Position numbers and translations under genes: made by a program
NCBI GenBank assembly: GCA_043804755.1
Contig: JAZDIT010000044.1
Location: forward strand, 24 to 64,023
Source: Patescibacteria group bacterium
GTDB taxonomy: Bacteria; Patescibacteriota; Minisyncoccia; Minisyncoccales; JAQTPW01
Reading direction: 5' to 3'
Length of the DNA: 64,000 nt
Shown: piece after piece, positions 3,062 to 52,401 of the stretch
Position numbering within the stretch: the stretch's first letter is position 1
Layout: every line of letters starts with the position of its first letter
The notes under the pieces: model-generated
Seen by the model: only the letters and a program-made list of their open reading frames with translations
What the model was told of the DNA's origin: nothing
Database searches by the model: none

Positions 3062-3149
3062 GGAGGGATTTACAACATTGACAAATCGTTTAAAATCACT
3101 AAAATAACATTATAACTTTAATAAGCTAAATAATTAAAAATACAAATCT

Positions 3150-11689: not shown

Positions 11690-11734
11690 ATTAAATAATA
11701 AACTTTCTGTTAATTTCTTATTATATCCGAAATT

Positions 11735-11920
11735 ATGGCAACGAAATCACAAATCGAAAAATCTAAAAAAAAGCCTAAATTCAAATGCAGGGTTGTCAGA
11801 AGATGCTTCAGATGCGGCAGAAAAAGAGCATATATGCGAAAATTCGGATTATGCAGGGTTTGTTTCAGGGAAATGGCCAACAAAGGATTGATCCCAGGGA
11901 TCAGGAAATCATCTTGGTAA
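11735..11920 (+). CDS. rpsN: 30S ribosomal protein S14, zinc-binding type Z
   Basis: 61 aa, [26 protein letters not shown]. Confidence 0.93.
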
Positions 11921-11959
11921 AAGAACAGAAAACAAAAATAATAAATTTCAAACATCACC

Positions 11960-12346
11960 ATGGATAAAATCTCCGAAATGCTAACCTCAATAAGAAATGC
12001 ACAAGCCGTGTTGAAACCGGCGATTTCTGTTCCTTATTCGGATTTGAAATACGAAATCGCAAAGATACTGGAAAAGGAAGGATTTGTCGAAAAAATTGAG
12101 AAAAAAGGGAAAAAAGTCAAAAAAACCTTTGAAATAAATTTGAAATACAAAGACGGATATCCAGCAATTTCCGGCCTGAAAAAAGTTTCAAAGCCTGGGC
12201 AAAGGATTTACGTAAATTACAAGGAGATTAAGCTGGTTATGGGAGGATTCGGATTTTCCGTCATTTCCACCTCAAAAGGCGTTTTGACCAACAAAGAAGC
12301 GAGAAAACAAAAAGTCGGAGGAGAATTAATTTGTGAAGTTTGGTAA
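11960..12346 (+). CDS. rpsH: 30S ribosomal protein S8
   Basis: S8 family. Confidence 0.92.
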   Translation: MDKISEMLTSIRNAQAVLKPAISVPYSDLKYEIAKILEKEGFVEKIEKKGKKVKKTFEINLKYKDGYPAISGLKKVSKPGQRIYVNYKEIKLVMGGFGFSVISTSKGVLTNKEARKQKVGGELICEVW

Positions 12347-12347
12347 C

Positions 12348-12914
12348 ATGAGCAGAATAGGGAAAAAGCCAATAAAAATACCAGAAAAAGTTGAGGTTAA
12401 AATAGATTGTGTCACACCAACGACCCAAAAGATTTTCGTTTCCGGACCGAAGGGTGAATTGTCTTTGGATGTTCCGAAAGAAGCCAGAGCCGAAATAAAA
12501 GAAGGCAGTATATTCGTTTATCCGCAGGTTGAAACGAAAAAAACTAAAGCAATGTGGGGATTATTTAGAGCGTTGATTTTTAATCTGATAGAGGGCGTAA
12601 CAAAAGGATATGAAAAGAAGCTGGAAATTGAGGGTATAGGTTATGGCGCTCAGGCGATAGGAGCAGAATTGGAATTAAAAGTCGGATATATTAATACTAT
12701 AAAGTTAAAGGCTCCCGCCGGAATAAATTTTTCGACTGAAAAGAACGTAATTACCGTTTCAGGGATAGATAAGGAATTGGTCGGCCAGATTGCGGCGAAA
12801 ATCAGGAAAATAAAACCAGTCGAACCCTATAAAGGGAAAGGAATAAAATATGTGGGAGAAGTTGTCAGGAGAAAAGTCGGTAAGAGAGTAGCTGCAACCA
12901 CTCCCGGAGCTTAA
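12348..12914 (+). CDS. rplF: 50S ribosomal protein L6
   Basis: Start at the ATG at 12348 ([12 protein letters not shown]); L6 family. Confidence 0.92.
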
Positions 12915-12919
12915 AAAAT

Positions 12920-13312
12920 ATGTTAGAAAGAAAAGGCAAAAGAATAAGGCGTCATAAAAGAATCAGAGCCAAAATAACCGGCACGAAAGAGAGGCCACGT
13001 CTTGGAGTTTTCTGTTCAAATGCACATATCTATGCGCAATTGATAAATGACGAAAAGGGCAAGGTTTTGGCGATTGCAAGCGATCTCAAATTGAAGAAGC
13101 AGCAAACCGGACAAAAAAGCGAAGTCAAAAAAGAAGGAGAGATAAAAAGAACGGGAAAGGTGGCCAAGGCTTTTGAAGTGGGCAAATTATTGGCAAAATC
13201 GGCCATGGAGCTGAAAATCGAAAATGTTGTTTTTGACAGAGGAGGTTTCCAGTATCACGGGGTGGTTAAAGCTTTGGCAGACGGAGCCAGAGAGGGAGGA
13301 TTAAAATTTTAA
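12920..13312 (+). CDS. rplR: 50S ribosomal protein L18
   Basis: L18 family. Confidence 0.9.
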
Positions 13313-13329
13313 ATTAAACATCAGAGAAA

Positions 13330-13872
13330 ATGGAAAACACGCAAAAAGAAACAAGTAAAAAAACGGACAGGCCTCAATTTTCGATGAACAGGCGGTCGTT
13401 TTCTCCTAAACCGGCTTCGGAGTTTGATTCGAAACTTCTGGATTTGGCGAGGGTTACAAGAGTCACTAAAGGTGGAAAACAAATGAGATTCCGTGCCGTT
13501 GTCGTCATCGGAGACAAGATAAAAAGAGTCGGCGTAGGAGTTGCAAAGGGTCTGGATGTCCAGCAAGCCGTTGAAAAAGCGACAAGGATGGCCAGAAAGA
13601 ACATGATTGAAGTGCCGATAGTCCAGGGTTCAATTCCGCACGAAGTTTATGCGAAATACGGACCGGCTGAAGTTTTACTCCGTCCGCAAAGGAAAGGAAG
13701 AGGTTTGGTGGCGGGAGGAACCGTAAGGGTTATTTGCGCTTTGGGAGGAATAAAGGATATTTCTTCGAAAATTTTAGGAAGAACGGGAAATAAATTGAAC
13801 AATGCAATGGCGACAATCATAGCATTAAAAAAGATTAAACATGGAATTACACCAGTTAAGGCCAACTCATAA
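13330..13872 (+). CDS. rpsE: 30S ribosomal protein S5
   Basis: S5 family (dsRBD plus S5 C-terminal domain). Confidence 0.92.
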   Translation: MENTQKETSKKTDRPQFSMNRRSFSPKPASEFDSKLLDLARVTRVTKGGKQMRFRAVVVIGDKIKRVGVGVAKGLDVQQAVEKATRMARKNMIEVPIVQGSIPHEVYAKYGPAEVLLRPQRKGRGLVAGGTVRVICALGGIKDISSKILGRTGNKLNNAMATIIALKKIKHGITPVKANS

Positions 13873-14272
13873 GCGGAAAAAAACAAAAAGAATAGGAAGA
13901 GGAGGCGTCCATGGATTCAATTGCGGCAGGGGAGCCAAGGGCCAGAATTCGAGAGCCGGAAAGAAATTCAAGCCGATTATCCGCGAATTGATTAAAAGAT
14001 ATCCCAAACTGAGAGGTTACAGATCCAAGAAAATTAATGATAAGCCCGCGGTTTTGAATTTGGAAATTCTGGACAAAAAGTTTGAAAGTGGGGATAAAAT
14101 ATCGCCGAAAGTGTTGATAGAAAAAAGAATAATCCGTAGAATAAATGGTAGAGTCCCCAAAGTCAAGATTCTGAGCAAGGGGGAGTTGAAAAAAGCCTTG
14201 ATTTTCGAAAATATCTCAGTTTCAAAAATCGCAAAAGAGAAAATCGAGAAAGCCGGCGGCGAAATAAAATAG
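13841..14272 (+). CDS. rplO: 50S ribosomal protein L15 (follows S5 directly; no L30 gene)
   Basis: MELHQLRPTHKRKKTKRIGRGG... L15; overlaps the rpsE 3' end by 32 nt. Confidence 0.9.
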   Translation: MELHQLRPTHKRKKTKRIGRGGVHGFNCGRGAKGQNSRAGKKFKPIIRELIKRYPKLRGYRSKKINDKPAVLNLEILDKKFESGDKISPKVLIEKRIIRRINGRVPKVKILSKGELKKALIFENISVSKIAKEKIEKAGGEIK

Positions 14273-14293
14273 AGGAATCGTTTCAAAAAATAA

Positions 14294-15574
14294 ATGAATT
14301 GGTTCAATAAATTAATCCAAATTTTCAAAACACCGGATCTGAGGAAAAAAATCCTCTTTGTATTGGGGATTTTTGCTATTTTCAGGATAATGGCGAATAT
14401 TCCCGTCCCGGGGATCGACGCCGAAAATATCAAGAATTTCTTCAATCAATTCCAGGTTTTCGGACTTTTGAATGCTTTCACCGGAGGAGCTTTGGATAAT
14501 CTTTCAATCATTATGTTAGGATTAGGGCCTTATATCACCGCCACGATTATTTTTCAGTTGCTGACGATGATTTTTCCCCAACTCGAAAAAATATACAAGG
14601 AAGAAGGAGCAGCCGGACGCCAAAAATTCAATCAGTATTGCCGGATAGGCGCCGTACCTTTGGCCGCTCTTCAGGCCTATGCAATGCTTATGCTTTTCCA
14701 AAGACAGAACGTCATCGGCACATTGTCGCCGAGCGTACTTTTAACTTCTATAGTCACAATTACCGCGGGCGCAGTATTTTTGATGTGGCTCGGAGAATTG
14801 ATTTCCGAAAAAGGAATAGGAAACGGAGTTTCTCTCCTTATTTTTGCCGGAATCGTAGCCGATTTTCCGAACAGTTTACGGCAGATACTTGTCGCCTGGG
14901 ACCCTTCTAAAATTCTTTTTTATATTTTATTTTTCACGATGTCTCTGCTTATCATAGCTGGCGTCGTTTTAATCAATGAGGCAAGAAGAAACATACCCGT
15001 TTCTTACGCCAAAAGAGTTCGGGGCACGAAAATGTACGGGGGCGTTTCCACCTACCTGCCTCTGAACGTAAATCCGGCAGGTGTAATCCCCATAATTTTC
15101 GCATTGTCGATTTTAATGATTCCCGGAATGGTGGGAAGTTTCTTGAGCGGGGCGAGCGGCCAAGTCGGGAACATTGCAAAAGGCGTTGCCGATTTTTTCC
15201 AGGATCCCTGGACGAACGGTATATTTTATTTCGTACTGGTCGTCGTTTTCACTTACTTTTATACCGCAGTCACGTTTGATCCCAAAGCCATTTCGGAAAA
15301 TCTTCAAAAAATGGGTGGATTTGTGCCGGGAATTCGTCCCGGGCAGTCAACCGCAAGTTTCATGTATTATATCCTGAATCGAGTGCTGTTAATCGGAGCT
15401 TTATTTTTGGGCACGATCGCCATCATGCCTTCGATTGTCCAGGGCATAACCAATATCCAGCAATTCCAATTTTTAGTCGGGGGCACTTCGCTACTCATCG
15501 TTGTTTCCGTTGTTCTGGAGACCATGAGGCAGATAAAAGCCCAGCTTCAGATGAGGGATTATGAAACTTTCTAA
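14294..15574 (+). CDS. secY: Preprotein translocase subunit SecY
   Basis: 10-TM SecY family; spc operon position. Confidence 0.95.
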   Translation: MNWFNKLIQIFKTPDLRKKILFVLGIFAIFRIMANIPVPGIDAENIKNFFNQFQVFGLLNAFTGGALDNLSIIMLGLGPYITATIIFQLLTMIFPQLEKIYKEEGAAGRQKFNQYCRIGAVPLAALQAYAMLMLFQRQNVIGTLSPSVLLTSIVTITAGAVFLMWLGELISEKGIGNGVSLLIFAGIVADFPNSLRQILVAWDPSKILFYILFFTMSLLIIAGVVLINEARRNIPVSYAKRVRGTKMYGGVSTYLPLNVNPAGVIPIIFALSILMIPGMVGSFLSGASGQVGNIAKGVADFFQDPWTNGIFYFVLVVVFTYFYTAVTFDPKAISENLQKMGGFVPGIRPGQSTASFMYYILNRVLLIGALFLGTIAIMPSIVQGITNIQQFQFLVGGTSLLIVVSVVLETMRQIKAQLQMRDYETF

Positions 15575-16238
15575 AAAAAATCCACTAATTATAATTTTAC
15601 TCGGCAAATCCGGCTCCGGAAAAGGTACGCAGGCCGATCTTTTGGTTGAAAAGTTCAAGCTTGATTATATAGGAAGCGGAGACCTGTTAAGGAACAGGGC
15701 AAAGAAAAACGACTTTGTCGGCAAAAGAATTGCCCAAATTCTTTCAGAAGGAGATCTTATCCCGCTGCCTGCGATTTTTAAATTATGGATGGATGAAACG
15801 GAGAAAATCATAAACAAAAACAAAAACTTCCGGGGTATGGTTATGGACGGAAATCCTAGAAGAATCATGGAAGCTTACCTCATTGACGATGTTTTCAAAT
15901 TTTACAGATGGGACAAAAATGTGAAAGTGTTTCTGGTAGATATTTCCGACAAGGAGGCGATTTGGCGGCTGACAAACAGGAGAATCTGCAAAAAGTGCAA
16001 AGAAATAGTTCCTTTCACGAAAGAGTTCAGAAACATAAAAGTTTGCCCGCAGTGTGGCGGCGAGCTTGAAAAACGATCAGATGATACGATAAGCTCCGTC
16101 AAAAAAAGATTGGCCTGGTTTCGGAAAGACGTACAGCCGATAGTGAATTATTACAAAAAAGCGGGAAAACTGGTAAAAATTGACGGGGAGCAGAGCATAG
16201 AAAACGTTTTCAAAGACATTTTAAAGGCGCTTAAATGA
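15561..16238 (+). CDS. adk: Adenylate kinase with a zinc-binding lid
   Basis: GKSGSGKGTQ P-loop; lid CKKC...CPQC. Confidence 0.93.
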   Translation: MKLSKKNPLIIILLGKSGSGKGTQADLLVEKFKLDYIGSGDLLRNRAKKNDFVGKRIAQILSEGDLIPLPAIFKLWMDETEKIINKNKNFRGMVMDGNPRRIMEAYLIDDVFKFYRWDKNVKVFLVDISDKEAIWRLTNRRICKKCKEIVPFTKEFRNIKVCPQCGGELEKRSDDTISSVKKRLAWFRKDVQPIVNYYKKAGKLVKIDGEQSIENVFKDILKALK

Positions 16239-30655: not shown

Positions 30656-30892
30656 ATGGCTGCTAACATCGTCATCAGGACCCAGAGTAATACTGTCCAT
30701 GTGTTTGATAAAAATAACAATCCGGTTCCCTTATTTGAGGGGAAGTATGAGGAGGTAAAATATCGAATTTGCTTGCAGTTTCAAGGAAACGACACAATTT
30801 TTGTAAATCAAACGCGACCGGGTCAGAACGACTTGGTCAAGAAAAGGGAGTGGCAATATGAAAGCGGAAGAACTCAAAAAGGAATTCTATGA
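30656..30892 (+). CDS. Hypothetical protein (78 aa), GC-rich island
   Basis: ORF with promoter plus ribosome-binding site; about 50% GC against a 38% background. Confidence 0.5.
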   Translation: MAANIVIRTQSNTVHVFDKNNNPVPLFEGKYEEVKYRICLQFQGNDTIFVNQTRPGQNDLVKKREWQYESGRTQKGIL

Positions 30893-31580
30893 CGCCGGTA
30901 AGTTTACTGAAGGTCTGGCTGCGGTCATCAAGGCACTTCAGGATTCGACTGGGAACGATGATCCTGAATGGCCCAATTTGCTCGCCCTAAAAGCGTGGTT
31001 CCATTACCGCCTCAAAGACTATGCTCTCGCCCAGGATTCGGCAAAGGAAGCAGGGCCGGTTTTATGGGCCCGAGAGTGTTTGGCCTACATTGCCGCTTAC
31101 GTGGATAAAGATGATGCGGCATTGCGGCAATTTCTGGATGAGCTCGGCGATAACATCAACGTCACCAATGCCATGATCATTCGTGCCAGAGATAATGACA
31201 GCACTATTGCTCACGGCGAAGTCCTCATGAGAACACTTCTCATCCGCGGCGAAGGGGTAGAGACTGCTAATCTCTATCATAACGCCGGTCGTTACTTCCT
31301 GGCAAAGCCGAGGGACGACAGCGACTACGTTCTGGCTCTGGGATTTTTCACGGTCGCTGCGGCTCTATATGGCACTACTGGAAATTGGCATCACCGGGGC
31401 GCTCTCGCCTTCTGGCGATCTAGTGCCCTAGAACATTTTATGGACAAAAAATCTGCCATAAGCGCCGTCGAAGATTCTCTCCGCTGCTGGACCGAGGCGA
31501 TAGCTCTTGATCCGACAAACAAGCAGCATCTGGAAAAATGGCAAGGCGCCATTAACCGGTTAAGCGAACTCCGGAAATAA
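30858..31580 (+). CDS. Hypothetical alpha-helical protein (240 aa), GC-rich island
   Basis: AAAAGGGAG ribosome-binding site before the ATG; GC-rich codons; no recognisable family. Confidence 0.55.
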   Translation: MKAEELKKEFYDAGKFTEGLAAVIKALQDSTGNDDPEWPNLLALKAWFHYRLKDYALAQDSAKEAGPVLWARECLAYIAAYVDKDDAALRQFLDELGDNINVTNAMIIRARDNDSTIAHGEVLMRTLLIRGEGVETANLYHNAGRYFLAKPRDDSDYVLALGFFTVAAALYGTTGNWHHRGALAFWRSSALEHFMDKKSAISAVEDSLRCWTEAIALDPTNKQHLEKWQGAINRLSELRK

Positions 31581-32979: not shown

Positions 32980-33993
32980 ATGTCTATATTCGTAAGAAAA
33001 ATCGGAATCGATTTGGGGACCTGCAACTCGGTCGTATTTATACCGGGCAAAGGGCCCGTTTTACAGGAGCCGTCAGTAGTGGCGGTGACTTTGGATGACA
33101 ACAAAATTCTGGCGGTAGGGGAGGCGGCAAAAGAAATGACAGGAAGGACTCCCGACACAATAAAAGTGTATCGTCCTTTGCGGGACGGCGTCATAGCCGA
33201 TTACAGGGTTACCCAGGCAATGCTTAAACATTTCATCGATAAAGTTTCGGGTACCCTGAAATTTTTAAAACCTGAATTGTTGATAGGAGTTCCCGCAGGC
33301 ATTACTTCCACGGAAAGGAGGGCGGTTATCGAAGCCGGAGTCTCGGCAGGAGCCAAAGCGGTTTATATAGCGAAAGAACCAATACTGTCTGCTATCGGAG
33401 CGGGGGTTCCCATTAATTCCTGTTCGGGACACATGATTGTAGATATTGGCGGAGGAACGTCGGAAGTGGCTGTAATTTCTTTGGGAGGAATAGTAACCTG
33501 CCATTCTCTGAGAGTAGCTGGAGACAAACTTGATGCCGCAGTTTCCGATTACATAAAGAAAAAATATAATCTCGCAATCGGGGAGCAGACTGCCGAAGAA
33601 ATCAAAATAAGAGTGGGTACCGCTTTGCCCGAAAAAGAGGAAAAATTCATCGAAATAAGAGGAAGAGATCTGGTTTTGGGTCTTCCCAAAAATATCAGAG
33701 TTTCTTCAAGCGAAGTTTGTGAAGCAATGAGCGACACTCTCGCCGAAATAATCCAGGTCATAAAATTGGTATTGAGGGACACTCCGCCGGAATTGTCGGC
33801 GGACATTATGGATAAAGGCATGGTTTTAGCCGGCGGCGGGGCTTTACTGCGGAATATCGACAAATTGATTTCCCAGAATACCGGAGTTCCGTGCATCCTG
33901 GCTGAAGATCCTCTGTTGTGCGTTGCAAAGGGAACGGGCTTGATGCTTGAAAGCTTGGACGTTTATAAAAAGAGCTTAATGAGCAAAAAATGA
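32980..33993 (+). CDS. mreB: Rod shape-determining protein MreB (paralog 1)
   Basis: GIDLGTCNSVVF ... actin-fold MreB family. Confidence 0.9.
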   Translation: MSIFVRKIGIDLGTCNSVVFIPGKGPVLQEPSVVAVTLDDNKILAVGEAAKEMTGRTPDTIKVYRPLRDGVIADYRVTQAMLKHFIDKVSGTLKFLKPELLIGVPAGITSTERRAVIEAGVSAGAKAVYIAKEPILSAIGAGVPINSCSGHMIVDIGGGTSEVAVISLGGIVTCHSLRVAGDKLDAAVSDYIKKKYNLAIGEQTAEEIKIRVGTALPEKEEKFIEIRGRDLVLGLPKNIRVSSSEVCEAMSDTLAEIIQVIKLVLRDTPPELSADIMDKGMVLAGGGALLRNIDKLISQNTGVPCILAEDPLLCVAKGTGLMLESLDVYKKSLMSKK

Positions 33994-36550: not shown

Positions 36551-37795
36551 ATGCGCCAATCAAAACTTTTTACAAAGATTTCAAAAGAATTTCCAAAAGA
36601 TGAAAGCAGCATCAACGCCCGTTTTCTGATAAGAGCCGGTTTTATCGACAAATTAATGTCGGGCGTATTTTCATTTCTTCCGTTGGGTTTGGCTGTCATG
36701 GGAAAAATTGAAAACATCATCCGCGAAGAAATGAACAAAATCGGAGGCCAGGAAATTTTATTGCCGGCTCTGCATCCCAAAGAAAACTGGCAGCTTACCG
36801 ACAGATGGAAATATCCCGAGATGTTTAAACTCAAGAATCGGGCGGAAAAAGATTTCAGTCTGGGGTGGACTCATGAGGAAATCGTCACGCCTTTGATCAA
36901 AAAATTCGTAAAATCCTACAAAGATCTTCCGGTTTACGTTTACCAGTTTCAGGATAAATTTCGCGACGAATTGCGGGCAAAATCCGGTCTTTTGAGAGGG
37001 ATGGAATTCACAATGAAAGATCTCTATTCTTTTCATGCGAGTGAGAGCGATTTAGACGAATATTATGAAAAGGTAAAAGGAGCTTATTTCAGGATTTTCG
37101 AGCGCTGCGGTCTTGGGAAAGTGACTTTTCTGACTTTGGCCTCGGGGGGCGCTTTCAGCAAATATTCCCACGAATTTCAGACGATAACCCCCTATGGGGA
37201 AGACGAGATACATCTCTGCCCTAAATGCAAAATTGCCGTCAATAAGGAAATTATCGAAGACGAAAAACATATGTGTCCCGGATGCAAACGCAAGAATATG
37301 GAAGCCAAGAAATCAATTGAAGTCGGCAATATTTTCAAACTCGGAAATAAATTTTCAGAACCCTTCGGGCTGAAATTCAAGGAAAAAGACGGCAGTGAAA
37401 AGTTATTGTCGATGGGATGCTACGGAATAGGTTTGGGGCGATTAATGGGAGCCGTCGTCGAAGTTCACCACGACGAAAAGGGAATTATCTGGCCAAGAAC
37501 CGTATCTCCTTTCCTGGCGCATCTGATTGAAATAAAGGGACAAAATTCGAAAGTTAAAAAAGAAGCCGAAAAACTTTATCAGGTTTTACAGAAAAAAGAA
37601 GTAGAAGTATTATATGACGATAGGGACGACAAAACTGCCGGAGAAAAGTTCGCAGAGTGCGATCTCATCGGGATTCCCGTTAGAATAGTCGTTTCCGAGA
37701 GAACTTTGGAAAGGGGCTGCGCCGAAATCAAAGGAAGGCAGGAAGAAAAAACAAAATTAATAAAATTAAGCCAAGTCACAAAAAATGTTGGATAA
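36551..37795 (+). CDS. proS: Prolyl-tRNA synthetase, short bacterial-type without editing insertion; Cys4 insert
   Basis: Class II motifs; CPKC...CPGC insertion. Confidence 0.85.
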   Translation: MRQSKLFTKISKEFPKDESSINARFLIRAGFIDKLMSGVFSFLPLGLAVMGKIENIIREEMNKIGGQEILLPALHPKENWQLTDRWKYPEMFKLKNRAEKDFSLGWTHEEIVTPLIKKFVKSYKDLPVYVYQFQDKFRDELRAKSGLLRGMEFTMKDLYSFHASESDLDEYYEKVKGAYFRIFERCGLGKVTFLTLASGGAFSKYSHEFQTITPYGEDEIHLCPKCKIAVNKEIIEDEKHMCPGCKRKNMEAKKSIEVGNIFKLGNKFSEPFGLKFKEKDGSEKLLSMGCYGIGLGRLMGAVVEVHHDEKGIIWPRTVSPFLAHLIEIKGQNSKVKKEAEKLYQVLQKKEVEVLYDDRDDKTAGEKFAECDLIGIPVRIVVSERTLERGCAEIKGRQEEKTKLIKLSQVTKNVG

Positions 37796-38837
37796 AATTT
37801 GGAAAATATTTTCGGAAGACATCGCAATTGATTTGGGAACGGCAAATTCCGAGGTTTATGTAAGGGGGCGGGGAATAATCATCCAGGAACCGAGCGTCGT
37901 TGCCATCAACCAAAAAACCGGGCAGATTCTTGCAATAGGCGAGGAGGCGAAAAAAATGGTTGGCAGAACGCCGGCTCATATCGTGGCTACAAGACCTCTG
38001 AGATCGGGCGTGATTTCCGATTTTGAAGTGACCGAGCAGATGCTCAGATATTTTATTGAAAAAGCCCAACGGAAAAAATTCGCTTTGTCGGCCAGGCCAA
38101 GAGTTATAATAGGTATTCCTTCCGGGGTGACGGAGGTGGAGAAAAAAGCCGTGATAGATGCCGCAAAATCGGCCGGAGCGAGGGAAGTTTTTTTGATTGA
38201 AGAACCAATGGCTGCTGCGATAGGCGCACGGCTTCCGGTACAGGAAGCGGGCGGGAATTTCATAGTCGATATCGGCGGAGGAACCGCGGAAATCGCAATA
38301 ATCTCCCTTGGCGGAATAGTTTTATCCAAAAGTTTGAGGATAGCGGGCGACAAACTGAATGAAGACATAATCCAGTTTGCTCAGGAAGAATATAAGCTCC
38401 TTATCGGGGAAAGAACCGCCGAAGCGATTAAAATCGGAATAGGATCGGCTTATCCGCTGAAGGAAAAAAGGGAGCTTCCCATGCGCGGAAGGAACTTGGT
38501 AACGGGCCTTCCTGAAGAAATACTCGTTTCGGATGAAGATATAAGGAGAGCCATGGAAAAATCCGTAAAGAGAATTGTCACTGAAATCAAAACCGCAGTG
38601 GAAGAGAGTCCGCCGGAATTGCTGGCTGACATCATGGCGTCGGGAATTTATTTTTCGGGCGGGGGATCTTTGTTGCGCGGATTGGATATTCTTGTGGCTA
38701 AAGAAACGAAAATTCCCACGCGCCTTATTGAAGACCCGATGACTGCGGTTGTGAGGGGAGCGGGAATGGTTCTGGAAAATCTTGATGAACTCGAAGACGT
38801 GCTCGTGGAAACTGCGGAACTCGAACCGCCAAAATAA
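37785..38837 (+). CDS. mreB: Rod shape-determining protein MreB (paralog 2)
   Basis: AIDLGTANSEVYV...; full MreB fold. Confidence 0.9.
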   Translation: MLDKIWKIFSEDIAIDLGTANSEVYVRGRGIIIQEPSVVAINQKTGQILAIGEEAKKMVGRTPAHIVATRPLRSGVISDFEVTEQMLRYFIEKAQRKKFALSARPRVIIGIPSGVTEVEKKAVIDAAKSAGAREVFLIEEPMAAAIGARLPVQEAGGNFIVDIGGGTAEIAIISLGGIVLSKSLRIAGDKLNEDIIQFAQEEYKLLIGERTAEAIKIGIGSAYPLKEKRELPMRGRNLVTGLPEEILVSDEDIRRAMEKSVKRIVTEIKTAVEESPPELLADIMASGIYFSGGGSLLRGLDILVAKETKIPTRLIEDPMTAVVRGAGMVLENLDELEDVLVETAELEPPK

Positions 38838-40598: not shown

Positions 40599-41126
40599 AT
40601 GCCGACAGATATAAACGATATAATCCAATATTTGAGTCCGATTATTTCAACCATTTACAGATGGTTGCCCGTATTAAGGATTGTCTTTTTGGCGATCTCC
40701 GTATTTCTTTTTGGGTTTATAATTTTCGCTTTGCTTAATACAACCTGGCTGAATAAATTATATCTGTGGGATGCGAAGGAATTTCTTACCAAACAGCCCT
40801 ATACGGTCAAAAAACTTTTTAAACAATGGCAGAAAATAAAAGTCCGGTTGGAGACAGGTATGGAAACGGAATATAAGCTGGCCGTTATTGAAGCGGACTC
40901 TCTCACTGATGATATTTTAAAGAGGATGGGATTTTTTGGAGAAACGCTGGGAGAAAGATTGGAAAAGGTGACAACAGCTATTCTCCCCGATATTGCCGAA
41001 TTGGCGGAAGCGCATAAAATCCGCAATAATATAGTCCGTGACCCCGACTACAGGTTATCAGCGGACGAAACAAAGAAAGTAATCGGTTCGTACGAAAAAG
41101 CCTTGGTCGAATTGCAGGCGCTGTAA
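40599..41126 (+). CDS. Hypothetical membrane-anchored protein
   Basis: N-terminal TM helix, then a helical cytoplasmic domain. Confidence 0.5.
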   Translation: MPTDINDIIQYLSPIISTIYRWLPVLRIVFLAISVFLFGFIIFALLNTTWLNKLYLWDAKEFLTKQPYTVKKLFKQWQKIKVRLETGMETEYKLAVIEADSLTDDILKRMGFFGETLGERLEKVTTAILPDIAELAEAHKIRNNIVRDPDYRLSADETKKVIGSYEKALVELQAL

Positions 41127-41177: not shown

Positions 41178-41249
41178 CGCGGGGTAGAGAACGGGTTATC
41201 TCGCGACTCTCATAAGGTCGAGAAGTGGGTTCAAGTCCCACCCCCGCAA
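41178..41249 (+). tRNA. tRNA-Met (CAU), initiator-like
   Basis: Hand-folded cloverleaf: acceptor CGCGGGG/CCCCGCA with C1:A72 mismatch, A11:U24 in the D stem, anticodon loop CUCAUAA, T arm GTGGG-TTCAAGT-CCCAC. Confidence 0.65.
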
Positions 41250-41295
41250 CAATCTGACTTCTCCGCCTAATAGGCGCTAAAAAGCCTCAGACCAG

Positions 41296-41367
41296 GCCGG
41301 CATAGCTCAGTGGTAGAGCAATGGCATCATAAGCCAGTGGTCGAGGGTCCGAATCCCCCTGCCGGCA
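41296..41367 (+). tRNA. tRNA with CAU anticodon (elongator Met or Ile2)
   Basis: Acceptor GCCGGCA/TGCCGGC, D arm GCTCAGTGGTAGAGC, anticodon loop AUCAUAA. Confidence 0.6.
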
Positions 41368-41379
41368 TAAAGAAAACGA

Positions 41380-41455
41380 GGACTCATGGTGTAGCCTGGT
41401 CTAACACGCCTCCCTGTCACGGAGGAGATCGGGGGTTCAAATCCCCCTGGGTCCG
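41380..41455 (+). tRNA. tRNA-Asp (GUC)
   Basis: Acceptor GGACTCA/TGGGTCC, anticodon loop CUGUCAC, T arm GGGGG-TTCAAAT-CCCCC, discriminator G. Confidence 0.65.
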
Positions 41456-41502
41456 CAACATAAAATATCCTTTTTGGATGTTTTTTGTTTTTGTTGGAAA
41501 AT

Positions 41503-41536
41503 TAATAAAAATAAAAACCCCGGTCTCGAACCGGGG
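41503..41536 (-). terminator. Rho-independent terminator for the minus-strand pyrEF gene (CCCCGGT-CTCGA-ACCGGGG, then a T-run on the minus strand)
   Basis: Hairpin with an A-run on the plus side (a T-run for the minus transcript). Confidence 0.65.
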
Positions 41537-41559
41537 CTTCACGCATTTATGATTGCGTG

Positions 41560-42867
41560 TTAGTTGATGTTAAGCTCCTCCTTCAGGAGGCGTTTCACTT
41601 CGGCAACGGGATCGGCCGCGCCGAAAATCTGTCGGCCCATCACGAGCTTGCTGGCGCCATTGTTTCTGGCATTGACCGGAGTATCTACCCTCCCTTGGTC
41701 GTTTGGATCAACACCAGGCGAACGGATTCCCGGAGTCGCGAGTTCCTTGTCGGGATAAAGGCGCTTGAGTTCTGACACCTCTTCCGCAGAACAGACGAAA
41801 CCATGGACGCCGGCGCGATTGGCAATCTCCGCCAGCTTCAGGACTTCTTCCATCGGGCGGCGTGTATAAATTTCCTCACAGGTGCCTTCCTTGAGCGAGG
41901 TCAGTACGGTAACTGCGAGAACCTTTGTCGGAGTGTCTTTGAGTAACTCGACCGCTGCCTTTGCCATCTCCTCCCCACCCGATGCATGGATGGTTGCGGC
42001 CCATGGTGGGTTGGGAAGCAAGTGTTTGATGATATTCTCCACAGTGTTCTTGATGTCATGGCATTTGAGGTCTGCCATGACCCGGCCGTACACCTGCAGG
42101 TTCGGGATGAGGTCCTTGATCCCCTCGTTTAGGAGGAGGTCGTTAGCCTTCAGGATACATCCTGAAGTTCTCAACTGGTCGATCACCGGCAGGATTTCCT
42201 CCCAGCTCTTTCCGTCCAGAGCGACTATGAGGGGATTTTTCTGTTCCACCTCGGCATCGCACCGCAACATGAGCCCGCTCGTAATGAGATATTTGCGGAT
42301 GTCATGAAGAGTTAAACCGGGCCAGATGCCTACCTTGATGCCCATTTCCTGGAACTTCTTTTTCCATCCCTGTTGCCGGTCAACCAGCACGATGTGGGGC
42401 AGAACTTGGAGTCCCATGGAAACGCACTTTAGGTATGGCGCTAGTTTGGAGGCGCCGTCGGTTATGACGTCATCGATTATGCACACGCTTTCATCGAATC
42501 TTGCCTCGCCGATGACGTCTGCTTTGGCCACCCTTCCTTCTTTCGGTTTCTCCCGAAGGGTAACGTAGGGGATGCCCGTTTTGACGGATATGAGGCCAGC
42601 AAAACAGCTGACCGCATCGGGCACTTCCGCGAACCGGTCGGGGCCGAGGCGCCGCAGTGCGTTGGCATATGTCTCCGCTAAGAAATCTAGCGCCTTTGGG
42701 TAGTTTCTGGCGTCTCTCAGATTAATATAAATATCTGTCTTCCCGCCACTCTTAAGCGGCAGGCTCCGGGCGTTGTCGGACTTGATCAAACCGTAATGGA
42801 GGAGCTCCTCTATTACAGAGATCTGTTCCCATTTAGTCAGCCAGGGTTGTCCAGAAATGTCCATCAT
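41560..42867 (-). CDS. Fused orotate phosphoribosyltransferase / OMP decarboxylase (PyrE-PyrF, UMP-synthase-like); GC-rich, probably acquired
   Basis: N-terminal PRPP-binding motif (IIDDVITDGAS); C-terminal OMPdecase motifs (LIVALDG, DLKCHDIKNT); about 55% GC; GGAGGGAG ribosome-binding site. Confidence 0.75.
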   Translation of the reverse strand: MMDISGQPWLTKWEQISVIEELLHYGLIKSDNARSLPLKSGGKTDIYINLRDARNYPKALDFLAETYANALRRLGPDRFAEVPDAVSCFAGLISVKTGIPYVTLREKPKEGRVAKADVIGEARFDESVCIIDDVITDGASKLAPYLKCVSMGLQVLPHIVLVDRQQGWKKKFQEMGIKVGIWPGLTLHDIRKYLITSGLMLRCDAEVEQKNPLIVALDGKSWEEILPVIDQLRTSGCILKANDLLLNEGIKDLIPNLQVYGRVMADLKCHDIKNTVENIIKHLLPNPPWAATIHASGGEEMAKAAVELLKDTPTKVLAVTVLTSLKEGTCEEIYTRRPMEEVLKLAEIANRAGVHGFVCSAEEVSELKRLYPDKELATPGIRSPGVDPNDQGRVDTPVNARNNGASKLVMGRQIFGAADPVAEVKRLLKEELNIN

Positions 42868-43029
42868 CTTTCTCCCTCCCTTTTTAGATTTTGAGCCAAT
42901 AAAATCTTATAAATTTACCTCCTTTTATTTATTGAATTTTCGGCTTGCTGACCCCAATATGCCACAAAATTTAAAAAAAATCAAGAGGCACTTTTGGCTG
43001 GCTATTAGAGTTTTCCACATATTTTGGGG

Positions 43030-43058
43030 TTGATTTCAGCTTAAAATTAAGGTAAAAT
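43030..43058 (+). promoter_or_regulatory. Candidate promoter TTGATT-17-TAAAAT for pheST
   Basis: Hexamers and spacing; 9 nt before the ATG region. Confidence 0.4.
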
Positions 43059-43066
43059 GATAGAAT

Positions 43067-44104
43067 ATGGCGGTCAAATTTAATCTGAAAATACTGAAAA
43101 ATCAGATCAAAAAAGGGATAGATAGCGCAAAAGACGAGAAAGAACTGAATGATATTCTAAAGGAATATATGGGTAAAAAAGGGCATCTGACCCTTATTTT
43201 GCGTTCTTTAGAGAGATTGCCTAAAGCAAAAAGAGCAAAAATAGGCAAAGAAGCAAATGAACTGAAAAATTATTTTCGGGTTCAGTTTGAAGAAAAAGCC
43301 GGGAAAGTCAAAGAAAAAATGCATAATGAAGCGGATGCGAAAGAGTGGATTGATATAACCGTGCCAGGGAAGAAACCGGCTCTCGGCCATTTAAATCCTT
43401 TGACGTTGGCAAAAATGGAAGTGGAGGAAATTTTCCAGTCAATGGGGTTTTCTGTTGTACAAGGTCCCGACATCGAAACCGAATGGTATAATTTCGATGC
43501 TTTGAATATTCCCAAAGATCATCCCGCAAGAGACCAATGGGACACTTTTTGGCTGAAAACCGATAATAACCCGCAACTGCTGCTTAGAACGCACACAAGC
43601 CCCGTCCAGGCGCGCTACATGGAAAAAAACAATCCGCCCTTGAGGATAATCGTTCCGGGAGACGTTTTCAGGCATGAAGCCACCGACGCCTCGCACGAAT
43701 TCCAGCTTTATCAGGTGGAAGGATTGATGGTGGATAAGGGAATTTCCGCCGCAAATTTCAAGGCGATTGTGGAAGAATTCTTTAAAAGATTTTTCAAAAA
43801 AGAGACAAAAATAAGATTAAGGCCTGATTTTTTCCCTTTTACGGAACCTTCCTTTGACGTCAGCATAAGTTGCCTGGTTTGCGGAGGAAAGGGTTGCCCA
43901 GTTTGCAAACAAACCGGTTGGGTGGAAGTTGCCGGCGCCGGAATGGTTCACCCGAACGTTTTCAAAAATTCAGGGCTGAATCCCAAAGAATGGCAGGGAT
44001 GGGCATTCGGTTTCGGTTTGGAAAGATTGACTATGATGAAATATAAAATAGATGATATCAGATTGTTCCGTTCCGGAGATTTAAGATTTTTAAATCAATT
44101 CTGA
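43067..44104 (+). CDS. pheS: Phenylalanyl-tRNA synthetase alpha subunit
   Basis: Class II core motifs. Confidence 0.92.
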   Translation: MAVKFNLKILKNQIKKGIDSAKDEKELNDILKEYMGKKGHLTLILRSLERLPKAKRAKIGKEANELKNYFRVQFEEKAGKVKEKMHNEADAKEWIDITVPGKKPALGHLNPLTLAKMEVEEIFQSMGFSVVQGPDIETEWYNFDALNIPKDHPARDQWDTFWLKTDNNPQLLLRTHTSPVQARYMEKNNPPLRIIVPGDVFRHEATDASHEFQLYQVEGLMVDKGISAANFKAIVEEFFKRFFKKETKIRLRPDFFPFTEPSFDVSISCLVCGGKGCPVCKQTGWVEVAGAGMVHPNVFKNSGLNPKEWQGWAFGFGLERLTMMKYKIDDIRLFRSGDLRFLNQF

Positions 44105-49354: not shown

Positions 49355-49894
49355 ATGGCACAAAGACCATCAAAAGACGAATATTATCTCAATATTTCGA
49401 GACAAATCGGTTTAAGATCAACCTGTTTTAGAAATAAAGGGGGCGCGCTTATTGTTCGCGAAGATCAGATTGTTGCCACCGGTTATATCGGCGCTCCGAG
49501 GAAGACAAAAGACTGTTTGGAAAGAGGTGAATGCTTAAGAGACAGATTAAAAATTCCTCACGGGAAAAGGTACGAGATGTGTCGTTCGGTGCATGCCGAA
49601 ATGAATGCGATAGTCAACGCAGCCAGAGCTGGAGTAAGTCTTCTCGGCGCGGATATTTACATTTCCTTTGAAAATCCTAAAGATGGTACTCCTAGAGACA
49701 GTTTTCCGTGCTTTATATGCAAAAAATTAATCATCAATTGCGGAATAAACAGGGTAGTTTGTTCTACCGCAGAAGATAAAATGATAACCTTTCGGGTGTC
49801 TGATTGGGTTAAAGATTGGCAGGAAAAGGATCTCGTGGACGATGAACATCAATTCGGCACAGATTTAAATCTCAAGGAAGGACTCAAGGAATAA
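49355..49894 (+). CDS. dCMP deaminase (cytidine/deoxycytidylate deaminase family)
   Basis: HAEMNAI ... PCFICKKLI zinc-binding motifs. Confidence 0.85.
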   Translation: MAQRPSKDEYYLNISRQIGLRSTCFRNKGGALIVREDQIVATGYIGAPRKTKDCLERGECLRDRLKIPHGKRYEMCRSVHAEMNAIVNAARAGVSLLGADIYISFENPKDGTPRDSFPCFICKKLIINCGINRVVCSTAEDKMITFRVSDWVKDWQEKDLVDDEHQFGTDLNLKEGLKE

Positions 49895-49895
49895 C

Positions 49896-50468
49896 ATGCA
49901 AAATAAAATTGTTTGCGTTGTGGGTATGGCGGGTTCGGGAAAGAGCATAGTGTCTGATGAGCTGGTTAAAACCGGCTTTTTATATTTAAGATTCGGTCAG
50001 ATCACACTTGATAAAATCAAAGAAGATGGACTTGAAGTAAATGAGGTTAATGAAAAAAAAGTGAGGGAGGATTTTAGAAAACAGTTTGGAATGGGGGCTT
50101 TTGCAATTTTGAACATTCCTAAAATTGAAGAATTGCTAAAAAAGACAAATGTGGCAGTTGACGGACTTTACAGCTGGTCGGAATACAGAATCCTAAAGGA
50201 GAAATACGGCGATTCGATGTATGTTGTGGCAGTGTATGCTCCGCCGAAAATGAGGTATGATAGATTAGAAAATCGGAGTGCCGAAAATGACAATAATAAC
50301 CGTTTCCGGCCGTTCACAAGAAAAGAAGCAAAGAATAGAGATTACGCAGAGATCGAAAACATAGAGAAGGGGGGACCGATCGCGATGGCGGATTTCACCA
50401 TAATGAATACCGGTACGACAGATGAACTTAAAAAAGAGATTAATAAATTTTTAACGCTTATTGGATAA
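49896..50468 (+). CDS. P-loop nucleoside/nucleotide kinase of unknown specificity
   Basis: GMAGSGKS Walker A; NMP-kinase-like size; sits between dCMP deaminase and tmk. Confidence 0.45.
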   Translation: MQNKIVCVVGMAGSGKSIVSDELVKTGFLYLRFGQITLDKIKEDGLEVNEVNEKKVREDFRKQFGMGAFAILNIPKIEELLKKTNVAVDGLYSWSEYRILKEKYGDSMYVVAVYAPPKMRYDRLENRSAENDNNNRFRPFTRKEAKNRDYAEIENIEKGGPIAMADFTIMNTGTTDELKKEINKFLTLIG

Positions 50469-50473
50469 ACACC

Positions 50474-51106
50474 ATGCAAAAAAACACATATCCCGGGAAA
50501 TTCATAGTTTTTGAAGGTTTGGACGGTTCGGGGCAGAGCACGCAGGCAGGAAAATTAGTTGATTTTTTGAACGAACCGAAACAAAAATTAAAATTCGGGC
50601 ATACCGGTGCTCATCTTACAAAAGAGCCTACTTCATACTTGATAGGAGGTCTCCTCAGAAGCCAATTGAGTGGAGATTGGAAATCTTCGCAGGAATGTCT
50701 CCAATTGCTTTTTTCAGCCGATAGAGCACATCATTTGGAGAAAGAAATTATTCCCTTGCTTGAAAGAGGAGTAACTGTTGTTTGCGATCGTTATTTTTTT
50801 TCAACAATGGCTTACGGTTCTTTGGATATAAAAGATAAAAAATGGTTGGTAGATTTGAATAGAAATTTTCTGTATCCCGATATAACTTTTTTATTAAAAG
50901 TTTCTCCGAAAGTCTGTATAGAAAGAATTAATAAAACTCGTTACGGAGTAACTTTATTTGAGAAAGAGCAATCATTAGCGAAGGTATGGCAGAATTTTAT
51001 TGTTCTACCAAAGAAATTCAAAAACATCCATGTTATTAATGGAGAAAAATCAGTTGACAAAGTTTTTGAAGACATACGGAAGATTATAAATGGGAAATTA
51101 GTATAA
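50474..51106 (+). CDS. tmk: Thymidylate kinase
   Basis: FIVFEGLDGSGQST P-loop; DRY motif. Confidence 0.88.
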   Translation: MQKNTYPGKFIVFEGLDGSGQSTQAGKLVDFLNEPKQKLKFGHTGAHLTKEPTSYLIGGLLRSQLSGDWKSSQECLQLLFSADRAHHLEKEIIPLLERGVTVVCDRYFFSTMAYGSLDIKDKKWLVDLNRNFLYPDITFLLKVSPKVCIERINKTRYGVTLFEKEQSLAKVWQNFIVLPKKFKNIHVINGEKSVDKVFEDIRKIINGKLV

Positions 51107-52401
51107 TGGCGAAAATCTTCGTTTACGATGAATTTGCACCCGAGGACATTGCGATGATGCAGGCTCTTTATTCGAGGAGCCCAAAAAGCGTTACAGAGCA
51201 TGTTGAACAGGTAAAACAGACTGGCTCGGGCAAGTTCATGGAACGGTTTTATGTCGGTTACGGACATGCGAGCATTGCCGATTGCGGAAGTACCACCATT
51301 TTTATCGAAGGAATCAGCATTTTGGGGGATAAAGCAATCCAGGATTGGCCTTTTTACAGCGGACAGGAAACAAGCACCCGGTATGTTGATATGGCCAAAA
51401 GACCGATTGTCGATCCGATAGGCACGGGAGCATCGAAAAAGATACTCGATAAATGGATGGCATTCTACGCGGAAAATCTGCCCTTGATGGAAAGATTTTT
51501 AACAGGAAAGTACCCCAAAAAAGAATCCGACGATGAAAATGTTTACAAAAAAGCAATCAAAGCAAGAGCATTTGACATTTTGAGGGCATTTTTGCCAGCA
51601 GGAATCACAACACAACTTAGCTGGCACACAAATCTGAGGCAGGCTTGGGACAAGCTTTCCATTTTAAGGTATCACCCGTTAGATGAGGTCAGAACGACTG
51701 CAGAAAGCATCCTTGCAAAATTAAAAGAAAAGTATCCGCATAGTTTCAGCCATCGTCCGACGGAAGAGCAGGAGAGTTACAGGGAATATGCCGGCAAGAA
51801 TTACTTTTTATTCAATCCGCCGAAAGAAGAGGTGGTTGAATTTTCTTTAAAAACAGACATTAAGAAGGAAGAGTTGGAGAAATATAAGGATATAACAGAG
51901 AACAGACCCCCAAGGACGGGTCTCCCCATCTTCCTTTTCGAGTTGGGAATCTTGACCTTTGATCTTATTTTAGATTACGGCTCTTTCAGAGATTTGCACA
52001 GACACAGAAATGGGATTTGTCGGGTTCCGCTTTTGAGAACGGATATAGGGTTCAATCCCTGGTATCTGGAAGAATTGCCGGCCGATATAAAAGAAAAAGC
52101 TCTAAAACTTATAGAAGAACAGAAAGAGACAATCACGAAATTAAATGCGCCTCCGGAGATTTTGCAATATTATATCGCTCTCGGGTTCAATGTGCCATGC
52201 CACATTACTTACGGTTTGCCCGCGACCGTTTATGTCGTAGAATTGAGATGCGGGAAAATGGTACACCCGACTTTGAGAAAAATTGCGTTCAAGATGAGAG
52301 AGGCCTTGCTTGATAGATTTCCGAATCTTAAAATGAATTGCGACCTGGAACCCAGCGAATGGGACGTTTCAAGGGGTCTTCAGGATATAATAAAGAAATA
52401 A
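51106..52401 (+). CDS. ThyX-like (flavin-dependent thymidylate synthase family) protein, apparent tandem pseudo-dimer
   Basis: Second half has an RHR motif (LHRHRNG); first half has a GH...S..E.S.RY block resembling the ThyX substrate-binding region; 431 aa is about twice a ThyX monomer. Confidence 0.45.
   Translation: MAKIFVYDEFAPEDIAMMQALYSRSPKSVTEHVEQVKQTGSGKFMERFYVGYGHASIADCGSTTIFIEGISILGDKAIQDWPFYSGQETSTRYVDMAKRPIVDPIGTGASKKILDKWMAFYAENLPLMERFLTGKYPKKESDDENVYKKAIKARAFDILRAFLPAGITTQLSWHTNLRQAWDKLSILRYHPLDEVRTTAESILAKLKEKYPHSFSHRPTEEQESYREYAGKNYFLFNPPKEEVVEFSLKTDIKKEELEKYKDITENRPPRTGLPIFLFELGILTFDLILDYGSFRDLHRHRNGICRVPLLRTDIGFNPWYLEELPADIKEKALKLIEEQKETITKLNAPPEILQYYIALGFNVPCHITYGLPATVYVVELRCGKMVHPTLRKIAFKMREALLDRFPNLKMNCDLEPSEWDVSRGLQDIIKK

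Follow-up and report, generated by a model that had tools for sequence, protein, structure and literature searches.

A gene that fuses pyrE and pyrF stands out by its high GC content within a 64,000-nucleotide stretch of DNA from a Patescibacteria group bacterium (assembly GCA_043804755.1, contig JAZDIT010000044.1, positions 24 to 64,023), hereafter the window, whose own numbering is used throughout. Was this gene imported recently, or does it belong where it stands? The initial annotation of the window took its composition as a sign of lateral acquisition and regarded it as an isolated metabolic patch. As to its origin, our analyses point the other way. The fusion, hereafter pyrEF (protein PyrEF), probably belongs to a bifunctional family that forms uridine 5′-monophosphate (UMP), lies in a variable slot for pyrimidine genes in which it was inverted locally, and was not recently imported. 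A striking compositional outlier thus need not equal a recent import, and the account of a patch brought in by horizontal gene transfer is replaced by that of a conserved but variable pyrimidine-gene slot.

Domains and predicted activity of the fusion protein

The fusion is an open reading frame (ORF) of 435 amino acids (aa) on the minus strand (41560..42867) starting with ATG. Domain matches and structures bore out that it joins an orotate phosphoribosyltransferase (OPRT) domain to an orotidine 5′-monophosphate (OMP) decarboxylase (OMPDC) domain, in the order of eukaryotic UMP synthase that had been read from the sequence (OPRT at aa 20-208, OMPDC at aa 209-430). Residues 212-426 matched the Pfam OMPdecase family (PF00215, 2.1e-39, 136.2 bits versus a cut-off of 27) and the C-terminal half exceeded the cut-off of the NCBIfam pyrF model TIGR01740 (140.9 versus 92.3 bits), falling slightly short of that of the equivalog PRK00230 (175 versus 193). 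Residues 20-208 matched OPRT models and OPRT structures only, and never PyrR or PurR; these matches included PRK13809 (1.6e-16), the Leishmania UMP synthase 3qw4_B (1.7e-17) and human OPRT 2wns (8e-12), and a sequence search of the PDB with this half returned only OPRT chains. An AlphaFold2 model computed with 24 homologues reached a predicted local distance difference test (pLDDT) score of 85.7 and a predicted template modelling (pTM) score of 0.84. When this model was compared with known structures using Foldseek, the C-terminal half, a TIM barrel, was paired with 3uwq, 8cso and 1eix, the PyrF proteins of Vibrio, Klebsiella and E. coli (E 4.5e-17, template modelling (TM) score on the target 0.80-0.84), and the N-terminal half, of type I phosphoribosyltransferase fold, with the OPRTs 3qw4_C and 4ohc (E ~1e-11, TM on the target 0.71).

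The catalytic residues of both enzymes could be followed through the alignments. Residues K39, R105, K109, D132-D133 and R164 aligned to K26, R99, K103, D124-D125 and R156 of E. coli PyrE. They belong to the phosphoribosyl pyrophosphate (PRPP)-binding motif VCIIDDVITDGAS, searched as a hydrophobic residue followed by x4-DD-hydrophobic-x-T-x-G, to the flexible loop (R105/K109), to LPLKSGGK (K39) and to DRQ (R164). We assume for these elements the roles described in work on Salmonella and E. coli OPRT, namely those of the PRPP motif, the flexible-loop Arg/Lys, the LKSG Lys and the orotate-site Arg. In the OMPDC half, K240, D266, K268, D271 and G411-R412-Q413 were invariant in 24 homologues, as was the DLKxHD motif, and these motifs aligned to the DLKFHD and GRPI segments of the Vibrio OMPDC. 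The catalytic Lys, the DxKxxD motif and the phosphate gripper GR(Q/P)I presumably act here as in the E. coli, B. subtilis and M. thermautotrophicus structures. The OPRT catalytic-site residues were likewise invariant in the family across the 24 aligned homologues. Since domain matches, fold and invariant catalytic residues agree, the fusion is predicted to be a bifunctional OPRT-OMPDC enzyme on the strength of homology and conserved catalytic residues: its N-terminal domain would convert orotate and PRPP into OMP, and its C-terminal domain would convert OMP into UMP.

The N-terminal half counts in part against this assignment. It stayed below the curated cut-offs (TIGR00336, 47 versus 106.8 bits; PRK13809, 60.3 versus 208), and the Pfam phosphoribosyltransferase (PRT) model PF00156 did not match it at E ≤ 0.01. 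With this domain below every curated cut-off and the Pfam PRT model silent, its OPRT activity is a prediction from homology. The same sub-threshold scores, together with a family-specific N-terminal extension (PWL..E) missing from canonical PyrE, would be expected if the domain were a regulatory or substrate-binding module of PRT fold, comparable to PyrR or PurR, and the protein were only the OMP decarboxylase that its NCBI name implies. We consider such a non-catalytic role very improbable, given that the matches are confined to OPRTs and never include PyrR or PurR, that the family shows no variation in the PRPP motif, the flexible-loop Arg/Lys or the orotate-site Arg, that the fold matches OPRT, and that joining to the next enzyme of the pathway suits catalysis.

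Similarly to the UMP synthase of animals and plants, the fusion carries both activities on one chain in the OPRT-OMPDC order, and the OPRT domains of the Leishmania and human enzymes were the best solved relatives of its N-terminal half. In contrast to these enzymes, its OMPDC half belongs to the bacterial type seen in E. coli and Vibrio (30-35% identity, TM 0.8) and was nearest to gamma-proteobacterial and Bacillus PyrF; the OMPDC of human UMPS was not among the listed sequence and structure matches of the fusion. UMP synthases of both domain orders, in animals and plants and in the reverse-order groups, have been described (PMC2705460). The OMPDC-OPRT proteins of cyanobacteria, kinetoplastids, oomycetes and diatoms (PRK05500) also join both domains and gave a weak match to the OPRT part, but their domain order is the opposite one and the fusion scored 45.9 bits versus a cut-off of 656. 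Separate PyrE and PyrF of the E. coli type share the catalytic residues of both enzymes with the fusion and differ from it in being unfused, in lacking the N-terminal extension and in the sequence of the OPRT half, which was only 22% identical to E. coli PyrE. As the OMPDC half is of bacterial type and the nearest relatives of the N-terminal domain are prokaryotic, the fusion appears to have arisen independently of both the animal/plant UMP synthase and the reverse-order fusions, and would not be a eukaryotic gene.

Composition and expression signals of pyrEF

The window has 68 ORFs that encode 100 aa or more, the fusion included. Among them, pyrEF ranked first both in GC (0.541) and in GC at third codon positions (GC3, 0.647), the means being 0.416 ± 0.033 and 0.438 ± 0.051, respectively. 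Relative to the 50 other ORFs that encode 150 aa or more, these values corresponded to z scores of 4.0 (GC) and 4.6 (GC3). The initial annotation had set about 55% GC in this gene against about 38% in its neighbours; the outlier with its GC-rich codons was confirmed (54.1%, rank 1), whereas the neighbours had ~40-42% GC. A gene with the amino acids of the fusion and the codon preferences of the window would have a GC of 0.459 and a GC3 of 0.458. Over half of the GC excess is synonymous codon choice, and the remainder is amino-acid composition. The codon shift was general, with GAC, GAG, AAG, ATC, CTC and CGC/CGG increased and TTG, AGA, AAA and GAA decreased, and GC3 was high over the entire gene, while the flanking intergenic DNA was AT-rich.

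The gene also has the strong ribosome-binding site and the GC-rich terminator that had been ascribed to it. The mRNA leader reads AAAAAGGGAGGGAGAAAG-AUGAUG, with the Shine-Dalgarno sequence 4 nt before the ATG, and the terminator hairpin with its T-run (41540->41514) lies ~20 nt past the stop codon and folds with -25.5 kcal/mol (z -4.9). Rfam models identified the three neighbouring tRNAs only (E ≤ 1), with neither a PyrR site nor a riboswitch in the leader.

A second GC outlier of the window was an ORF of 240 aa (30858-31580, plus strand; GC 0.515, GC3 0.539), for which no Pfam match and no homologue in any of the loci retrieved were found.

A conserved but variable pyrimidine-gene slot

In the ORF list, pyrEF is the sole minus-strand gene between 30858 and 52401. 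The tRNA-Met, tRNA-Met and tRNA-Asp genes are found just past its 3′ end, and 199 nt separate its 5′ end from pheS. We compared this site with those of the closest relatives. No database relative of the window PheS was closer than ~77% identity, and the contigs carrying the best PheS matches were collinear with the window over at least 15 genes, with protein identities of 0.63-0.92. The shared order comprised MreB, HolB, RRF, RseP, a class II aminoacyl-tRNA synthetase, MreB, GatC, GatA, a conserved hypothetical protein, tRNA-Met, tRNA-Met and tRNA-Asp on the left of the slot, and PheS, PheT, GyrB, SecE, NusG and L11 on its right. In five syntenic relatives (L078 to L082), whose PheS was 72-76% identical to that of the window, the slot was occupied by plus-strand genes: a 180-aa OPRT-like PRT in L078; a 241-aa OPRT-like PRT in L079; a canonical pyrE in L080 (TIGR00336, 153 bits); a PRT and a dihydroorotate dehydrogenase (PyrD) in L081; and a LAGLIDADG ORF, an aspartate carbamoyltransferase (PyrB), an OMP decarboxylase of a different subtype and a 239-aa PRT-like gene in L082. 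The slot PRTs were ~31% identical to the N-terminal domain of the fusion. The site is thus conserved as a slot for pyrimidine genes but variable in content, with a different late-pathway set in each genome of the clade. The reading of pyrEF as an interruption of a plus-strand housekeeping run was not supported, since the same slot holds pyrimidine genes in the syntenic relatives. At the left edge of the slot in L082, between tRNA-Met and tRNA-Asp, the LAGLIDADG homing-endonuclease ORF (2611-3282) had a GC of 0.335.

The closest PyrEF homologue, P0002, was encoded on a 2-kb contig (L084) and was 83% identical at the amino acid and 76% at the nucleotide level. On this contig, pyrEF with the same terminator immediately precedes the conserved leader and start of pheS, is co-directional with pheS, and has a GC of 0.544 versus 0.386 in the flanks. 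Identity at four-fold degenerate sites between the window and L084 genes was 0.47 versus 0.29 expected. The homologue being in the same slot, the fusion was in the slot before the window and L084 lineages split. The orientation in the window is best read as a local inversion, in which pyrEF and its terminator would have been turned together inside the variable slot.

These data bear on whether this genome itself recently acquired pyrEF from a compositionally distant donor, with insertion beside the tRNA genes. The GC and GC3 z scores of about 4, the opposite strand, the gene's own ribosome-binding site and terminator, the three adjoining tRNA genes and the absence of the fusion from the slot of the five syntenic relatives would all fit such an event. 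Indeed, the site resembles a tRNA-adjacent genomic island in that three tRNA genes adjoin it, its composition is atypical and its content varies among relatives. It differs from such an island in having no integrase and no direct repeats, in consisting of a single gene, and in that its variable content is always made of pyrimidine-pathway genes. We found no direct or inverted repeat bracketing the fusion, no attachment-site (att)-like tRNA fragment and no integrase, the neighbours being tRNAs, gatA and pheS. In addition, the closest homologue, at only 83% identity, occupies the same slot and shows the same GC contrast, the close homologues are all Patescibacterial, and the same GC excess occurs in every family member (see below). 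Recent acquisition, largely refuted by L084, is thus highly unlikely.

The PyrEF family across Patescibacteria

A search of 5.8 billion proteins with the fusion yielded 784 matches at E ≤ 1e-5. The best 120 had lengths of 429-472 aa and shared 59-83% identity with the query over 97-100% of its length, and the sources named for them were either Patescibacterial or an unclassified "bacterium". Moran-, Kaiser- and Jorgensenbacteria, Paceibacterota and Minisyncoccia were among the taxa of the homologues listed. A scan of one genome per species provided 64 fusion loci from different genomes, essentially all of them Patescibacterial metagenome-assembled genomes (MAGs). In a neighbour-joining tree, the PyrEF proteins grouped mostly by taxon label. 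The family is large, strongly conserved and spread across Patescibacteria, with an under-annotated OPRT half, and the fusion is one of its ordinary members. A precomputed PF00156 match was present in just 1 of the 120 best-listed homologues, and the public name of those listed is just "orotidine-5′-phosphate decarboxylase", since neither Pfam nor the curated NCBIfam cut-offs pick up the OPRT half. When pathways are reconstructed for Patescibacteria, pyrE may therefore be scored as missing, and such reconstructions underlie the argument that 93% of the phylum lacks de novo nucleotide synthesis. We found no description of a Patescibacterial OPRT-OMPDC fusion in the literature.

Each domain also exists separately. 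A library search with the N-terminal domain alone retrieved standalone relatives of 196-217 aa on metagenome contigs (39-49% identical), at least two of which were complete genes on 6-14-kb contigs without an adjoining pyrF, and reverse-order fusions were present among the distant matches. Standalone pyrF genes were 62-65% identical to the C-terminal domain. Two of the standalone N-terminal homologues (L076:6001-6633 and L077:1647-2237; 196-210 aa) include the PWL..E extension and have neither a Pfam match nor an adjacent pyrF. In the MAGs ARS52 and ARS1290, pyrEF (L028:10001-11302 and L042:10001-11313) showed frameshift-like disruptions with in-frame stops; these copies are pseudogenes or assembly errors.

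GC excess as a family trait

The GC excess of pyrEF was not particular to the window. Its GC exceeded that of the flanks in all 64 loci, by 0.086 on average (range +0.016 to +0.176), and metagenome loci retrieved later showed the same excess. Among the 50 loci with enough other ORFs for ranking, pyrEF had the highest GC of all ORFs in 31 and the highest or second highest in 39, while only 2.7% of 629 other ORFs exceeded the mean GC of their own locus by more than 0.08. GC3 was above the locus mean in 45 of these 50 loci and was not raised in a few (L005, L007 and L023). GC at four-fold degenerate sites (GC4) of pyrEF was 0.56-0.91 in genomes with flanks of 36-49% GC. With an excess in 64 of 64 loci, GC alone cannot mark the window copy as recently foreign. 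The inference of lateral acquisition from composition was therefore not sustained, since the shared excess extends to gene pairs that co-diverged with their flanks, L084 has the same slot and contrast, and neither integrase nor repeats were found.

The excess may be described as two layers. The first would be a family-wide amino-acid composition with more Ala, Val, Pro, Leu and Asp and less Lys, Phe and Ile, and the second a GC-biased synonymous choice in most family members, which either a gene-specific force maintains or old transfers from GC-richer Patescibacteria may have left behind. Standalone pyrF genes showed an even wider contrast: four of them (L063:10001-10684, L099:6001-6684, L100:2807-3490 and L101:6001-6699) had a GC of 0.64-0.66 and a GC3 of 0.89-0.91 in flanks of 40-44% GC, which they exceeded by 0.20 to 0.26. 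The coding sequences also appeared to fold more stably than controls. Compared with shuffled sequences, the mean z score was -2.6 in 14 pyrEF orthologues (-3.2 in the window gene), versus -0.86 in 16 other genes of the window (Mann-Whitney p = 1.4e-4) and -0.90 in 28 GC-matched ORFs. The shuffling exchanged synonymous codons within blocks of 30 codons and did not preserve dinucleotides across codon junctions, so the folding result is no more than suggestive. The most negative value among the GC-matched controls (-2.95) belonged to the PyrB gene next to pyrEF in L038.

On the grounds of the one-sided excess in 64 of 64 loci, a GC3 of ~0.9 in genomes of 40-44% GC, the lack of an equilibrium donor among the sampled loci and the stable folding, we tentatively propose, as one possibility short of an even chance, that a gene-specific process, and not recent transfer, keeps the genes for the last pyrimidine steps in Patescibacteria far above genome GC. 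With the same reserve, this process would cover the pyrE-pyrF fusion and standalone pyrF, and less so neighbouring pyrB, purB and purH. Selection for a GC-rich, strongly folded mRNA and GC-biased repair after recurrent homologous exchange of this highly conserved gene are candidate processes. The persistent excess across the family is the one puzzling feature. As it involves synonymous sites in AT-rich reduced genomes, it offers a clean test case for separating selection, biased conversion and transfer.

Other causes were considered and rejected. An embedded conserved RNA or overlapping element was discarded, as third-position conservation was flat in 62 orthologues and GC3 uniformly high. A "pyrimidine economy" of the mRNA did not apply either: U fell from 24.7% to 19.5% but C rose from 18.3% to 26.6%, so that total pyrimidine went up. 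Translational selection of the kind that shapes highly expressed genes was discarded too: ORFs that we take to encode EF-Tu and ribosomal proteins had a GC3 of only 0.36-0.48, and the codon shift of pyrEF touches codons ending in G as well as in C, and also the first positions of Arg and Leu codons.

Some genes adjoining pyrEF or pyrF were GC-rich as well. The 213-aa PRT-like gene that immediately precedes pyrF in L101 likewise had 62% GC. In L038, a 492-aa PyrB homologue (2612-4090) beside pyrEF had a GC of 0.61 versus 0.53 for the locus, and in L022 the ORFs beside pyrEF (11496-16179), presumably PurB and PurH, had 0.54 versus 0.46.

Vertical descent and exchange within the phylum

In order to follow the descent of the family, PyrEF divergence was compared with that of shared flanking genes. 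Amino acid identities of PyrEF and flanks were 88 versus 88% in L053/L055, 83 versus 79% in L015/L021, 75 versus 69% in L030/L062 and 67 versus 62% in L023/L024, and the corresponding identities at four-fold sites were 0.75 versus 0.74, 0.67 versus 0.60, 0.35 versus 0.34 and 0.28 versus 0.33. A further pair with shared flanks gave 58 versus 60% at the amino acid level. Four-fold identity of the window gene to those of L003, L001, L004 and L011 was near random (0.30-0.39 versus 0.27-0.32 expected). As PyrEF identity tracks that of the flanks, with L020/L025 and L001/L003 as exceptions, the family is mostly vertical, with some exchange inside the phylum. This pattern fits the scattered distribution of nucleotide-synthesis genes over Patescibacteria, 93% of whose genomes are without complete pathways (bioRxiv 10.64898/2026.06.21.733656). 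Deep synteny was rejected as proof of vertical descent: genes neighbouring pyrEF in the window also occurred near it in L028, L039, L052 and L012, and 4 of 64 is by our estimate about what chance would give.

We therefore return to the reading that we judge probable, a bifunctional family member in a variable pyrimidine slot, inverted locally and not recently imported. Besides the sub-threshold scores of its OPRT half, several results weigh against it. The fusion was missing from the slot in five of five syntenic relatives (L078 to L082); since these slots lack it and their PRTs are only ~31% identical to its N-terminal domain, the fusion replaced something in the window lineage. The pyrEF genes L020:7506-8786 and L025:966-2246 were 93% identical at the amino acid level and 0.82 at four-fold sites, while their syntenic flanks were saturated (0.35), which indicates that pyrEF was recently exchanged or replaced between these diverged Patescibacteria. 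Likewise, PyrEF of L001 and L003 was 77% identical compared with ~35% for UvrC. Finally, none of the ~80 sampled loci had flanks above 0.55 GC, and hence no donor at equilibrium with a GC3 of 0.8-0.9 was found.

Part of this evidence suits another scenario, an old lateral replacement in which a GC-rich pyrEF from another Patescibacterium displaced a standalone pyrE or pyrE-like gene before the window/L084 split and is still ameliorating. An older replacement among Patescibacteria is plausible, and we regard it as rather unlikely, though far less so than a recent import. The slot holds different OPRT-type genes in the syntenic relatives, the codon shift is general, as expected from a GC-richer background, transfers do occur, as in L020/L025 and in L001/L003 (77% for PyrEF versus 35% for UvrC), and nucleotide-synthesis genes are scattered in the phylum (10.64898/2026.06.21.733656). 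By a rough decay estimate, made from the four-fold identities to L084 (0.47 versus 0.29 expected) and to L003, L001 and L004 (0.30-0.39 versus 0.27-0.31 expected), each lineage keeps about a third to half of the ancestral four-fold signal, and a decay of GC4 from ~0.9 to 0.56-0.79 fits this estimate. In contrast, such a replacement needs donors with a GC3 of at least 0.9, unmatched by the flanks of the ~80 loci sampled (none above 0.55 GC), and a positive excess in 64 of 64 loci demands near one-way transfer from GC-rich to AT-rich genomes. Moreover, the excess was also found in pairs that co-diverged with their flanks, and no mobile-element remnants were present.

Pyrimidine metabolism around pyrEF

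The initial annotation had noted the absence of any other de novo pyrimidine gene. This was confirmed for the 64-kb window by BLASTP with E. coli CarA/B, PyrB/C/D/G/H, Prs and Upp, which found nothing else. In L038, L019, L048 and L065, pyrB, pyrC or pyrD lies directly beside pyrEF, and this adjacency in other Patescibacteria places the family in the de novo pathway. The different late-pathway fragments found at one locus suggest that these symbionts tap host pyrimidine intermediates at different steps, and scavenging of intermediates, drawn from the patchwork of partial pyrimidine sets in the slots of relatives, is a reasonable if speculative idea.

About 6.5 kb downstream on the plus strand (49355-52401), the window contains genes for a dCMP deaminase, an AAA_18 nucleotide kinase, thymidylate kinase and a 431-aa ThyX. 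At the same place, L078 (16435-20172) contains a dCTP deaminase, ThyA, DHFR, a dUTPase-like gene, a dNMP kinase and Tmk. From this comparison, ThyX in one stands where ThyA and DHFR stand in the other.

Genomic features of the locus

The features of pyrEF and of its surroundings are collected in Table 1.

Table 1. Features of pyrEF and its slot, in window coordinates.
Feature	Position	Strand	Basis
pyrE-pyrF fusion coding sequence, predicted bifunctional OPRTase/OMP decarboxylase	41560..42867	-	ORF, domain matches, homologues, AlphaFold2 model, Foldseek
N-terminal divergent OPRT-like domain (~aa 1-205)	42253..42867	-	OPRT-only family and structure matches, aligned catalytic residues
C-terminal bacterial-type OMP decarboxylase domain (~aa 209-435)	41563..42243	-	PF00215, TIGR01740, best structures, DLKxHD motif
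Shine-Dalgarno sequence GGGAGGGAG of the fusion	42872..42880	-	direct sequence reading
Intrinsic terminator of pyrEF, GC-rich hairpin and T-run	41514..41540	-	folding; L084 alignment extends to position 41529
tRNA-Met, tRNA-Met, tRNA-Asp cluster, left border of the slot	41178..41456	+	same tRNAs at the same place in L078, L079, L081 and L082
Conserved pheS leader/promoter region, right border of the slot	43006..43058	+	85-87% identical in L084 and L080; promoter-like site at 43030-43058
pheS, conserved right neighbour of the slot	43067..44104	+	ORF and synteny
Conserved hypothetical gene after gatA, left neighbour before the tRNAs	40599..41126	+	orthologues at the same position in L078-L082

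Further to the left, two full-length MreB paralogues are encoded 4 kb apart on the plus strand (32980-33993 and 37785-38837), an arrangement that is kept in the syntenic relatives.

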